Assembly (NCBI GenBank): GCA_041690135.1
Contig: JAWLHY010000009.1
Coordinates: forward strand, 64,001-128,000
From: Armatimonadota bacterium
Lineage (GTDB): Bacteria > Armatimonadota > SYMT01
DNA length: 64,000 nucleotides
Direction: 5' to 3'
The notes beneath the pieces were generated by a model. The model saw only the letters and a list, made by a program, of their open reading frames with translations, was not told where the DNA came from and ran no database searches. Position numbers and translations under genes: made by a program. This document shows positions 54,483 through 62,452 of this stretch, in pieces (within the stretch, counting starts at the first letter, position 1; every line of letters starts with the position of its first letter).

Positions 54483-54583
54483 CTTCCGCTTCTTGGAACA
54501 GCCGGAACCTTTTGGGGAACCCAGTAATCCAAGGGAAGGGGTGCCGGCCTGCACCCCAAGCTTGCCCTGGGGAGAGACATCCG

Positions 54584-55246
54584 ATGCACGGTCGCGCGGT
54601 CCTCTACGCCCTCTGCTTCAGTTGGGTCCTGGGAATCGCCGGATTTCCAGTTTTCGCCAACCCGCCCGTCGCTCCGGAACCGGACGGAACGATCTTCCAG
54701 CGGATCGCGTTGACGCACGCGGAGCCGCTGGGAGTGCTCCGGATCCTCACTGCGGAGACGGACGTGGACCGGCGTTCCGGTGCGCTGCATGGCAAGCACT
54801 CGCTGGTCCCGGCGGGGATTCGGGCTACGATAGCATTTCCTACCGGGGGAACCCTGATGGTCAAAGGCGAGCCGCCGGCGGTCTGCCAGTTCGCGCTGGC
54901 CTGCACCCTCCTCGACGTGCCCACGGAAAGGCGCGGGGACGGCCGGATCCGGATAACGCTCCGTCCAACACGCGCGGACCTGACCGAGTTAACCCGCCAG
55001 ATCCGCGAGCTACCGGGAGCGGGGCAGGTGCAGTTGATGGCAAAGAGCCTCACCCTGGAAGGCTCGGCGGCGTGGCTTCACCAGGCCCTCCGGCAGGCCG
55101 TGCGCCAGGAACTCAACGGGAAAGGCGCCGAAAAGTCTGCCTACGTTCCTCCTTATCTTCCGACCCTTCCTTATCTTTATCCATTTCACCAACGTCCCTC
55201 GGGCGTGATCGTCCGCTTCAGTAGGCCCTGGGGATCGCCCTCGTAG
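54584..55246 (+). CDS. Hypothetical secreted protein with secretin N-domain (NolW-like) repeats
   Basis: Signal peptide; RIALTHAEP..LVPAGIRATIAFPTGGTLMVKGEP....LLDVP pattern; no secretin beta-barrel. Confidence 0.55.
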   Translation: MHGRAVLYALCFSWVLGIAGFPVFANPPVAPEPDGTIFQRIALTHAEPLGVLRILTAETDVDRRSGALHGKHSLVPAGIRATIAFPTGGTLMVKGEPPAVCQFALACTLLDVPTERRGDGRIRITLRPTRADLTELTRQIRELPGAGQVQLMAKSLTLEGSAAWLHQALRQAVRQELNGKGAEKSAYVPPYLPTLPYLYPFHQRPSGVIVRFSRPWGSPS

Positions 55247-55812
55247 AGCGCCAACTGGTAACGTTGGAACCAGTAGAGGCTGGCTCGCCGGTACTGGGCA
55301 TCGTAGTCCGGGTGCTCGGCGCCCTGTGCGGTGCGCCGGCGGAGTAGCTGCGCGTGCTGCTCCTGAAGCAGGAGCGGGTTCCGGTTCACGTGGTGGGCGC
55401 TGATGTAGAGGTACGGGTTGGCCCGGACCACCGCGTAGAGCCGGTCGCGGGCCAGGAGCAGGTCGAGGAAGCCCGGGTTGTCCGAGCGCAGGGTGTTCGC
55501 CAGGTCCGCGGGATCGAAAAACGGAGGTCGGTCGACCGGATGGACGTGGAAAGTCCCCACGAACCGCCCCTCTTCCGTGTAGGCCTGATAGTGTGCCTGG
55601 GAAGCCAGTTCCAGCGGGAAGTGGAGCTTCCCCTCGCGCAGCGCCAGCGGAAAGCCCAACTCCGTGCCGGCGGGGGCACTGTGGTAGGTGTTCAGGAACA
55701 CCTCGGCGTGCTCCCGGAAGTCGAGGGTGTCCGGGAGGTGGTCTGGATGGCGGCGGATCGGGTCGTCGGCTGCGCGGGCCAACCAGGAGAGGGTAGGAGA
55801 CGCGAGCAGCAT
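55186..55812 (-). CDS. Hypothetical protein with a JAB/MPN-like metalloprotease motif
   Basis: TELGF...VGTFHVHPVDRPPFFDPADL; AAGAGGT RBS; 29 bp downstream of the oxidase gene. Confidence 0.6.
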   Translation of the reverse strand: MLLASPTLSWLARAADDPIRRHPDHLPDTLDFREHAEVFLNTYHSAPAGTELGFPLALREGKLHFPLELASQAHYQAYTEEGRFVGTFHVHPVDRPPFFDPADLANTLRSDNPGFLDLLLARDRLYAVVRANPYLYISAHHVNRNPLLLQEQHAQLLRRRTAQGAEHPDYDAQYRRASLYWFQRYQLALYEGDPQGLLKRTITPEGRW

Positions 55813-59769: not shown

Positions 59770-59940
59770 GCCTTCCTATTGTATCAACGGGTGGGTGGGA
59801 GTACTGGGTGCCGAGCGAAGTTGATGGGTAGCCGAAGGAACGTAGGAGACTACCATACAAAATGGTAAGCAACCAGGGGTTTGGTCAGGCGAGGCGAGGG
59901 TGTGCTCTCGTCAGTAGCTTTGTGAAAGCGTAGAATTAGA

Positions 59941-60356
59941 ATGCCACGAGTTTACCGAACAATGAAGCAGGATGGAGATGGTCCGGCGCTGGGTGATCAG
60001 TTTGGTACTCTGGGAGTGCGAGTTCCCAGGGACATCGAACCCGATCCGGACGGGAACGTGCGAGCAGGTGCAGGCGGGATGTCAGTGTTTGCGAAGCTAC
60101 GCGCTTTGCCGGCTCGCATGGTACCCCGAAGTTTGCGCGCACTGTATCCGGGTGCAGTTGGCTCGGAGGCCTCTCCTGTCTGGGTTTTCGGTGAGGGGAA
60201 CTTTGCGGCGGGTCCGTTTGCCCCAGGTCTCGACTTACGGCCGGATCGGCTGCTGATCACGGCTTCATTGAACCATCAACAGTCATGGAGTTGACCGAGT
60301 ATCAGTCGGCGTTGGCCGATACACGCCAACAGTGGGACAAGGTTGAACCATGTTAA
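59941..60356 (+). pseudogene. Tse2-like ADP-ribosyltransferase-fold toxin, frameshifted near 60246
   Basis: MPRVYRTM..LGVR..GGMSV.. in frame to PD. The -1 frame continues SAADHGFIEPSTVMELTEYQSALADTRQQWDKVEPC* and ends at 60356, overlapping the next ATG. Confidence 0.65.
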
Positions 60357-61624
60357 CGACAGAGAAACGATACAGCCAGAGCCCCTATTTTCGGCTTTAC
60401 GAAGCGCAATTGCGTCAACTCCATGATCTGGTTGCCGCCGGCCTAGGAGACTCGCCCGAAGCCGAAGCACTCCGCGAAGAGATGGAAGCGCCGGAGAGGA
60501 TGCTTGGGGCGGCGGAACTGGAACATCTCAATGGGTTATCCGCCGACCTGTATTCACTCACGGATGATGAAATCTACGAGCCAGAGCCAGTATGCAGGAC
60601 GGCGGATGAACTGCGTGCCGCCATTCAGGTGGCATGGGCAAACCGGGATTGGCCGCGCTTGCTAAAGTTGCTGCGCGAGGGTCAGTCGGGACTGTCGCCC
60701 GACCAGGTGGCATTCCTGCGTGCACAGGCATACGACGCCCTCGGCCATCCGGAGACCGCGCTCCTGTTTCAGCAAAAGGCAGCACAACTCAACCCTGATT
60801 ACCACGTCTACCACTACTTGGTGATCGACTACCTCTTGCGTCTTGGGCGGTTGGGTGAGGCGATCCAGATGGCTCGCCCGCTCCTGATCGATGGGACTGC
60901 CCCGTTCTTCCTACGGATCCAAGCGTCTGCAATCTTGCAGCGCGCGAGTATCCAAATGAACCCCGCCGAGGCCCGGCTGATCCAAAGCGAGGTGTTAAAG
61001 GCGCTTCCAACACTGGTTGCCTCCGAAGATTTTGGGGTCCAGCCGGCGAATGTGCAGGTGTTAGGGCTCATCACGCTTGCCTTTTGCCAGGCGGAAATGG
61101 GGCAGGTGTCGGCGGCGATTGCTACCCTGGGTCGGGCGGTAAGCGTCAGCCCGGACACACCCACTGGGTGGGCACTCAGAGGGCAACTTCGACTTCAGAA
61201 TGAGCCTAGGGGAGCCATGTCGGACTTTGAACACGCCATACAGCGTGGGACCCAACTGCCGATTGCCTACCTCGTCCTCGCCCACGAAGAGTTGATAAAT
61301 GAGCGATTCGAACAATGCCTGGAACTCTGCCAGCGCGGCTCTAGCTTATCTGATGGCGCTCAGGAGTCGGCTTTGTTTCACTACTACGCAGCATTGGCCC
61401 GCTGGGGTAGTGGCGCCGATCCAAACCGGGTTAGGCAGAGTTTCGAGAGCGCCCTGAGACTTGACCCGTTGAATAGCGGCATCCGCGAACATTATGAGTT
61501 GTTTGCCTCCGCGCAGGCCCAGTGGGCGAGGGCGGTCGCGGATGATGTCTTACGAGACGTCGCCCGCCCAGCAACTGGAATTCGCCGGATCGACAACTTG
61601 CCACTCATTCCAGTAGCGGCGTAA
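60350..61624 (+). CDS. TPR repeat protein with N-terminal helical domain (putative toxin partner)
   Basis: N-terminal YEAQLRQLHDL..GDSPEAEALREEM..LSADLYSL; TPR-like units (AAQLNPD, AVSVSPD..WALRG, ALRLDP); lower GC than flanks. Confidence 0.8.
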   Translation: MLTTEKRYSQSPYFRLYEAQLRQLHDLVAAGLGDSPEAEALREEMEAPERMLGAAELEHLNGLSADLYSLTDDEIYEPEPVCRTADELRAAIQVAWANRDWPRLLKLLREGQSGLSPDQVAFLRAQAYDALGHPETALLFQQKAAQLNPDYHVYHYLVIDYLLRLGRLGEAIQMARPLLIDGTAPFFLRIQASAILQRASIQMNPAEARLIQSEVLKALPTLVASEDFGVQPANVQVLGLITLAFCQAEMGQVSAAIATLGRAVSVSPDTPTGWALRGQLRLQNEPRGAMSDFEHAIQRGTQLPIAYLVLAHEELINERFEQCLELCQRGSSLSDGAQESALFHYYAALARWGSGADPNRVRQSFESALRLDPLNSGIREHYELFASAQAQWARAVADDVLRDVARPATGIRRIDNLPLIPVAA

Positions 61625-61639
61625 ACAGAGAGGAACACC

Positions 61640-62452
61640 GTGTCACGGACCTGGAAGCCCGTAGAGGGGAGCACCGACGAGATCCTGGCCACCGAGGAAC
61701 GGCCTTTCGCGGCCCTGGCGGAAGGCAGCGTGCCGGCGGTGATCGTGCGCGGTGCGTTCCCACGGGGAGCCTGTGTCGAAGTGGTACGCCGGCTCTACGA
61801 AGAAGCGGGAGTCGAGGAGCGGCACGGGCAGGCCTACGATGCGGTGGGGACGAGCCTGGTGAACCGCGGCGCCGACCCCGACGCCTTCTTCGCCCACGCG
61901 CGGGAGACGCACGCGCTGTTCGGGCGCCTCTTCCAGGGGACCGAGGATCCGGTAGCCTGTCTCTATTCGCAACTGGCCGCCCTGGCCCCGGACCGCAGCG
62001 TGAAAGTGGCCCGCGAGCCGGACGGCCGCCTGTATGGCTCCGCCATTTTTCGTCTCTACCCGGCGGGGAAGGGGCACGGACCGCACTTCGACTCGCTGCG
62101 TCTCCGCGAGGGCTGGGCTCACTACGCCGCCGGGCAGTTCCGGCACCAGTTCGCGGGCGTGCTTTGCCTGCAAGAAGCGGAAGATAGCTCCGGCACGGGT
62201 GAAAGCCACATCCACCGGCAGTTCTGGTCGCCCGAGCTCCAGCCGGTCCTCGACCGGGGCGAGTTCCCCGCCTGGGCGGCGGACCGGGGCGTGGAGAGCG
62301 CAACGGTCCACCTGCGCGCCGGCGATTTCTACGTCTTCAATCCTCTCCACATCCACGAGGTGCCGACCATCTGCGGGGAGCGCCCGCGGGTGGTGCTGGC
62401 GACCTTCCTGGGCTACTCCCCGGACGACCCGGAAGTCTTCGTCTGGTCCTGA
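61640..62452 (+). CDS. 2OG-Fe(II) oxygenase superfamily protein
   Basis: HGPHFDS (HxD), AGDFYVFN..IHEV (distal His), RPRV (Arg). Confidence 0.75.
   Translation: MSRTWKPVEGSTDEILATEERPFAALAEGSVPAVIVRGAFPRGACVEVVRRLYEEAGVEERHGQAYDAVGTSLVNRGADPDAFFAHARETHALFGRLFQGTEDPVACLYSQLAALAPDRSVKVAREPDGRLYGSAIFRLYPAGKGHGPHFDSLRLREGWAHYAAGQFRHQFAGVLCLQEAEDSSGTGESHIHRQFWSPELQPVLDRGEFPAWAADRGVESATVHLRAGDFYVFNPLHIHEVPTICGERPRVVLATFLGYSPDDPEVFVWS

Follow-up and report, generated by a model that had tools for sequence, protein, structure and literature searches.

A stand-alone Tse2-like toxin gene and its Ala-Ala-tailed TPR partner in Armatimonadota: a conserved, probable toxin-antitoxin variant, apparently undescribed

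Two adjacent genes of an Armatimonadota bacterium, lower in GC content than the DNA around them, raise the question whether they encode a toxin and the protein that restrains it and, if so, how the toxin would be set free. They lie on the plus strand at positions 59908-61624 of the window, by which we mean the whole stretch of 64,000 nucleotides that was analysed. A preliminary description made from the letters of the DNA had proposed a Tse2-like toxin of ART fold coupled to a TPR protein that senses a trigger. The two-gene module is real, the toxin gene (59941-60356) being followed by the gene of the TPR partner, and the sequence features were found as described.

The toxin gene starts with an ATG at 59941 and carries its YR and GGMSV motifs in a frame that ends at a stop at 60294 (117 aa); the HGFIEP motif lies in a different frame, at 60249-60356. 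Because intact relatives of 130-165 aa span both pieces, we place a single net -1 frameshift near 60247-60249. It separates an N-terminal piece of 102 aa (59941-60246), which holds the putative catalytic R6 and S48, from a C-terminal piece of 35 aa (60249-60356), which holds HGFIEP and the putative catalytic His. The view that the reading frame is complete only after repair is borne out: tblastn with P0004, the closest intact relative (55% identical to the N-terminal piece), matches the window in two frames, and the C-terminal piece matches P0014 at 50% identity (E 3e-10). The break had been taken as repairable noise, but breaks also occur in 9 of 70 related toxin genes, at differing positions (L008, L015, L036, L055, L061, L064, L066, L067 and L069), and some of these may be assembly errors. 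The 70 loci derive from a scan of GTDB that yielded 119 matches to one pattern, P[GN]TGGMSV[SA]; the sample is biased towards it, and the toxin of the window itself does not fit it. A programmed frameshift was considered and rejected, because no slippery heptamer occurs nearby and the breaks of the relatives do not fall at one place. When the window was screened for frameshifts, 12 junctions stood out, of which 11 can be explained as gene boundaries or opposite-strand shadows, and the toxin break was missed; the screen therefore cannot settle between artefact and pseudogene. The frame is lost before the His: either the toxin of this copy is dead, with the antitoxin still intact, or the break stems from an assembly error. 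Elsewhere in the window, at about 45460 on the minus strand, coding-like segments meet without a nearby start codon, possibly a second frameshift.

Searches with the 102-residue piece recovered 401 representatives at E<=1e-3, and none of the 150 matches listed is longer than 206 aa. From these 150 we took the 120 proteins of 125-170 aa, less 9 with aberrant ends or partial matches, and in the resulting alignment of 111 relatives (A1) a triad is conserved: Arg6 in 98 (the other 13 being gaps), Ser48 in all 111 and His in 108. All three residues are present in the window toxin, the His past the frameshift, and R-S-H is the triad that Robb et al. in 2016 reportedly assigned to Tse2. The model of P0004 (pLDDT 97) points the same way. 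Foldseek placed Tse2 (5ako) at the top with a probability of 0.99 and an E of 0.008, which misses the mark of E<=0.001, and VIA-align ranked Tse2 first (Z 9.2, rmsd 2.9, 107 aligned residues), ahead of a next match at 4.3 and then other ART folds. The Pfam family PF18648 (ADPRTs_Tse2) matches 46 of the 111 relatives at E<=0.1 (best 3.8e-9) and neither the two window pieces nor P0004. At sequence level the GGMSV of the window toxin aligns with the GGTSV of Tse2 at E 0.54, the Ser motif being the only part aligned; PDB sequence searches with the toxin gave nothing meaningful and no significant similarity to Tse2 (none at E<=10 in one search, E 0.54 in another). Pfam, PADLOC and NCBIfam returned no matches to the window toxin pieces, and a viral structure library nothing at E<=0.001. 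A protein atlas led from the toxin piece to DUF6098 and ADPRTs_Tse2 (16% of one cluster), below its recognition mark, and a word-based protein search found one relative of the toxin and one of the partner. The modelled fold of P0004, the alignment and the PF18648 matches argue for the proposed Tse2-like ART fold with a conserved R-S-H, and by predicted fold and by motif the toxin appears to belong to the Tse2 family. In a tree of 57 of the 70 loci, which leaves out 13 partial toxins, the window piece is sister to that of L002 (100/84), inside an Armatimonadota group.

The stop codon of the toxin gene (60354-60356) and the ATG of the partner (60350) overlap by 7 bp, as had been observed. The partner is indeed a 424-aa protein with an acidic helical N-domain and TPRs, as seen in Pfam matches above the cut-off (TPR_2, E 1.2e-10), in the charge count of residues 1-75 (16 D/E against 6 K/R) and in its model, in which three helices (aa 12-68) are joined by a linker to a TPR solenoid (aa 85-405) and a disordered tail (aa 410-424). 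On the plus strand, 60350-60553 encodes the N-domain (aa 1-68), with its three acidic helices the predicted antitoxin. The solenoid, whose length varies in relatives, is encoded at 60602-61564; it is modelled at a pLDDT of about 90, and its top Foldseek matches are TPR superhelices. The tail, encoded at 61565-61624 and modelled at pLDDT <50 over aa 410-424, ends in Val-Ala-Ala, a candidate ssrA-like degron for ClpXP. Pfam scans of the window partner and its relatives found TPR families only and no DNA-binding domain, and partners consisting of the N-domain had no Pfam match. PADLOC recognised neither window protein, and the protein atlas gave no usable match to the N-domain.

Is this partner a constant companion of the toxin? 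Downstream DNA is available for 17 of the closest loci, and in all 17 the gene after the toxin encodes a homolog of the partner's three-helix N-domain. A profile of this domain detects a homolog directly downstream of the toxin in 42 of the 70 loci (type A), 25 of these weakly (E 2e-7 to 0.06). In 24 of the remaining loci the partner is of another kind (type B), and 4 loci have neither; with an hhalign probability of 7%, a relationship between the profiles of the two types is not convincing. Toxin and partner are mostly separated by -11 to +16 nt. The co-conservation of the pair is thereby supported, and the two genes form the coupled, co-conserved operon that characterises type II TA systems. 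What is constant in the partner is the N-domain. Among the close loci, partners have 74-78 aa (N-domain only, in L007, L009 and L014), 126-196 aa, 289-311 aa or about 420 aa; most either have 160-200 aa and about one TPR unit or lack the repeats altogether, and only 2 of 17 (L002 and L036) match the window partner in length. The idea that the short partners are assembly truncations was rejected for most of them; a continuation in another frame was found only in L036. A search for longer proteins revealed no new fused domain among 17 matches.

The stand-alone versions of 74-78 aa, together with a predicted complex that lies across the active site, support the N-domain as the unit that would hold the toxin. 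The complex was folded for the L003 pair rather than for the window's own proteins. Cognate toxin and N-domain scored 0.86, against 0.00 for the best of three controls; the mark set for this score is reached by 116 of 157 solved complexes and by 2 of 215 mismatched pairs. Runs agreed in at least 97% of contacts, the pLDDT of the partner was at least 83, and the predicted interface includes S48 and H108 of the toxin and its 57-60 loop. The score may reflect likeness to Tse2-Tsi2; Tsi2 is absent from the 30 PDB sequence matches of the N-domain profile at E<=10. One contact, between positions 59 and 47, is aromatic/Trp in 12 of 14 cognate pairs and Arg/Glu in the window and its sister L002. This looks like a single reciprocal change, consistent with a window N-domain that fits its own toxin. 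Direct binding of toxin by antitoxin is a prediction only.

The C-terminus of the partner, which the preliminary description overlooked, points to release by proteolysis. An Ala-Ala end is found in 19 of 41 complete type-A partners (L021, with an open end, being left out of the count) and in the window's, against 4 of 238 neighbouring genes (5 of 285 in another gene set), 19 of 1164 internal positions and 0 of 24 type-B partners; these counts and the Fisher p-values ignore relatedness. The tails are mutually unrelated and occur on proteins of 74-421 aa in several clades, and only 5 of the 17 partners of the close clade carry the Ala-Ala end. Given this tail, a ClpXP-type protease could therefore destroy the partner. 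Ala-Ala is described as necessary yet not sufficient for ClpXP degradation in PMC10862746. In CmdTAC, an anti-phage ART system, the antitoxin CmdA has LAA at its C-terminus and is degraded by ClpP (PMC11618068); a change of its AA to DD abolishes degradation (10.1101/2024.02.24.581848).

Base composition and surroundings bear on the origin of the cassette. The GC content of the module is 0.586 against 0.659 in the window, below that of all 1177 other overlapping segments of 1717 nt (minimum 0.602), and GC3 is 0.54 and 0.66 in the module genes against 0.80-0.89 in 7 other genes of the window. The module had been called AT-richer than its flanks; its GC is lower, but at 58.6% GC it is not truly AT-rich. 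The promoter claimed for it, a sigma70-like candidate (TCGTCA-17-TAGAAT), is present at 59908-59936 on the plus strand, but alone it is no better than chance (one site against 0.5 +/- 0.8 in shuffles). TANAAT is nevertheless commoner within 60 nt upstream of close toxin homologs (7 of 16) than of other genes (2 of 91) or in random 60-mers (35 of 3059). The spacing of 4 nt between promoter and ATG is short for a leaderless start. The module is flanked by a divergent gene for a GAF histidine kinase and by a gene for a WelO5-like 2OG oxygenase. The latter, at 61640-62452, matches the family of WelO5-type carrier-independent halogenases and 2OG-Fe(II) oxygenases (E 3.5e-21). Farther upstream, two convergent ORFs at 55186-55812 (minus, 208 aa) and 54563-55246 (plus, 227 aa) have no Pfam match; the former has an H-x-H motif, which we take to be reminiscent of JAB-type metalloproteases. 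No Rhs or T6SS family was found among the flanking genes scanned, at about 53-64 kb of the window, in line with the preliminary description, which saw no such context. Neither tRNA genes nor insertion repeats were found in the window, there are no flanking repeats of note, and a plasmid search gave no match among 72,556 records. Type-A cassettes are surrounded by unrelated housekeeping genes, and in L010 the cassette sits between genes for the large and small subunits of an aconitase-family enzyme (leuC/leuD-like). The low GC, the unrelated neighbours and the L010 insertion are best explained by a cassette that is mobile or was horizontally acquired. In two Planctomycetota (L010:5570-8525 and L004:91-1641) the cassette directly precedes a leuD-like gene.

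The wider family adds further arrangements. A tightly coupled third gene, from one of three families, is found in 17 of the 25 remote type-A loci, in which the antitoxin is short and lacks TPRs; these third genes showed no SecB match in Pfam. One, of about 200 aa, occurs in 8 loci (L037, L040, L043, L046, L056, L060, L068 and L069) and was negative in Pfam and PADLOC in the members scanned. Another, of about 137 aa, occurs in 6 (L016, L019, L025, L029, L035 and L051); it is apparently beta-rich and was Pfam-negative in the members scanned. The third is a KaiC-like ATPase of about 493 aa whose gene overlaps the antitoxin stop (L041:7653-9134, L057:7671-9221 and L059:7584-9065), with Pfam KaiC matches in 2 of 3. 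Among type-B loci, L053:6995-9312 and L063:6992-9272 encode a Tse2-like toxin followed by a UG22-like reverse transcriptase of 626-638 aa to which the type-B domain is N-terminally fused. They are candidates for a toxin system controlled by a reverse transcriptase, and L053 adjoins a type I restriction subunit. The relevant portion of a paper on UG/Abi enzymes (PMC9226505) connects UG22 with HEPN, and Tse2 goes unmentioned there. Type-B partners in L023, L026, L027, L028 and L031 have C-terminal extensions (155-218 aa), without a Pfam match in the two scanned. A phage search gave a single match (L071): in Vibrio phage PQ189376.1 (L071:262-943), a Tse2-like gene and a type-B partner lie beside a LexA-like repressor, a typical cargo position.

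How does the cassette relate to known systems? With Tse2-Tsi2 of the H1-T6SS of Pseudomonas aeruginosa (5ako, PF18648) it shares an ART-like fold, the GGMSV/GGTSV motif, a toxin gene that comes first and, by prediction, a small acidic helical partner over the active site; Tsi2 occludes the Tse2 active site according to PMC6099711. It differs in that identity is about 20%, that the N-domain profile gave no sequence match to Tsi2, that the window partner carries TPRs and an Ala-Ala tail, and that no secretion context was seen in its surroundings. Tse2 is exported through Hcp1, as stated in PMC6099711 and PMC12133291, and the lack of a secretion signal is therefore weak evidence. With CmdTAC, and TAC systems generally, the cassette shares an ART toxin and an antitoxin with N-terminal helices and a disordered Ala-Ala tail (VAA in the window); in CmdTAC the toxin is released by ClpXP, as PMC11618068 and 10.1101/2024.02.24.581848 report. 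The CmdT triad, in contrast, is H-Y-[EDQ], of diphtheria type (PMC11618068), against R-S-H here. Furthermore, the cassette has no SecB-like gene, the next gene being the 2OG oxygenase, and a TPR solenoid stands between antitoxin domain and tail. By analogy it would work like CmdTA, but it falls outside TAC because there is no SecB-like gene and the triad differs; nor is it an Rhs tip. Rhs and other polymorphic toxins (L020, L030, L033 and L070) resemble it in having a Tse2-like domain followed by a small immunity gene, whereas the toxins of the window clade stand alone (0 of 42 fused) and have another partner family. DarTG, MbcTA, ParST and RES-Xre, which are type II TA systems of ART or RES fold, likewise pair an intracellular NAD+-using toxin with a cognate antitoxin. 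Their toxins are weak structural neighbours of P0004 (Z 2.5-4.2), far below Tse2, and their antitoxins, which are enzymatic or DNA-binding, are unrelated. Compared with type II TA systems in general, the DNA-binding domain by which antitoxins commonly, if not universally, autoregulate was not found in the window partner, and the expected intact toxin gene is frameshifted. The literature covered, subscription journals and supplementary tables lying outside its scope, held no account of stand-alone Tse2-like TA pairs. Term searches did not find Tse2 in PMC9503650, the DefensePredictor preprint or PMC10440598, and in PMC7955679 the Pfam family is named in the methods only. We regard the cassette as a real, conserved and apparently undescribed TA variant.

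We judge it probable that the module is an intracellular, toxin-first type II TA cassette that is switched on by proteolysis of its antitoxin. The fold, the conservation, the pairing, the predicted interface and the Ala-Ala enrichment on which this reading draws are computed results. The toxin would be a stand-alone, NAD+-using enzyme of the Tse2 family (ART fold, R-S-H), with toxicity and ADP-ribosylation as its presumed activities, and the three-helix acidic N-domain of the co-translated partner would cover its active site. The exposed Ala-Ala tail would let a ClpXP-type protease destroy the partner, and such proteolysis would free the toxin and arrest the cell once resynthesis stopped or the tail was unmasked, the most plausible trigger being phage infection or host shut-off. 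The TPR solenoid would be a clade-specific add-on that probably tunes antitoxin stability. For a role in phage defence, our estimate falls just short of an even balance. The enrichment in defence islands that had been anticipated is not seen: clear defence-like neighbours occur in a handful of loci (L007, L009, L019, L021 and L025), counted in flanks of at most 7 kb without a background control. PADLOC scans covered 149 of the 156 called neighbours in the 17 close loci and 121 of 212 in the 25 remote ones, and returned mostly generic kinase, ATPase and methyltransferase matches.

Three other accounts must be weighed, and the degrees of confidence attached to all these readings overlap and do not sum to one. 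The pair could be a selfish addiction module or a general-stress TA system with no specific anti-phage role, in which a labile antitoxin enforces retention and toxins often decay; we hold this to be unlikely, if not strongly so. It would fit the insertion of cassettes among housekeeping genes in unrelated contexts, the scarcity of defence neighbours and the scattered breaks in 9 of 70 toxin genes, but the plasmid records and the flanking sequences yielded nothing in its favour, and third genes and reverse transcriptase fusions exceed what addiction needs. These same add-ons lend some weight to a second account, in which the TPR solenoid is a phage sensor: its groove would retain the antitoxin's own Ala-Ala tail, or the N-domain, and competition from a phage protein for the groove would expose the degron. 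In such a form the logic of toxin-antitoxin-chaperone systems would operate without a chaperone. C-terminal peptides are ligands of TPR grooves, and where the repeats are missing, third genes accompany the short antitoxin of most remote type-A loci, as the UG22-like enzyme is joined to the type-B partner in L053 and L063; such interchangeable add-ons suggest a sensor slot. We nevertheless consider a sensing solenoid rather unlikely. The sensor role, advanced already in the preliminary description, is weakened by the partners themselves, long in only 2 of 17 close loci, mostly with about one TPR unit and in three cases with none. Moreover, the tail stays undocked in the model (pLDDT <50), the repeats have no known ligand or phage trigger, and the defence-island signal is weak.

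In the third account, which we regard as very improbable, the genes are an orphan secreted effector-immunity pair like Tse2-Tsi2, its toxin being loaded into Hcp without a visible signal, or, if the toxin is dead, an orphan immunity gene against incoming Rhs tips of Tse2-like type. Tse2 itself passes through Hcp1 (PMC6099711 and PMC12133291). Rhs proteins carry this domain as their tip in L020, L030 and L070, and in L033 with an unclassified partner; the toxin-first order and the acidic partner resemble effector-immunity pairs, and a WapI-like gene lies downstream in L013 (E 9e-6). Yet the Rhs-borne toxins use type B or another partner, and type B never ends in Ala-Ala (0 of 24), a degradation tag that would be counter-productive on an immunity protein. 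Long N-terminal fusions are found on 0 of 42 type-A toxins against 6 of 24 type-B toxins, which supports an intracellular rather than an Rhs-delivered toxin, and no T6SS or Rhs family was found among the immediate type-A neighbours scanned.

Beyond the intracellular cassette released by proteolysis, the family as a whole might constitute a widespread, undescribed type of anti-phage switch, in which a domesticated Tse2-like warfare toxin is held by a three-helix, degron-tagged antitoxin and governed by interchangeable sensors; we rate this as rather unlikely. The sensors would be a fused TPR that hides its own degron, the third genes, the KaiC-like ATPase and, with the sister partner type, the reverse transcriptase. 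If so, the TPR form would be the chaperone-free equivalent of TAC, and the family would offer many tractable enzymes for the search for the target of Tse2. That molecular target is still described as unknown in PMC12133291; the family, with its hundreds of small R-S-H proteins and their inhibitors, makes the question testable. One toxin domain is put to two uses, as a weapon delivered by Rhs proteins and probably as an intracellular switch, for which it has another partner that bears a degron. The family also points to a novel route by which sensing might be linked to release by ClpXP with no SecB chaperone involved.
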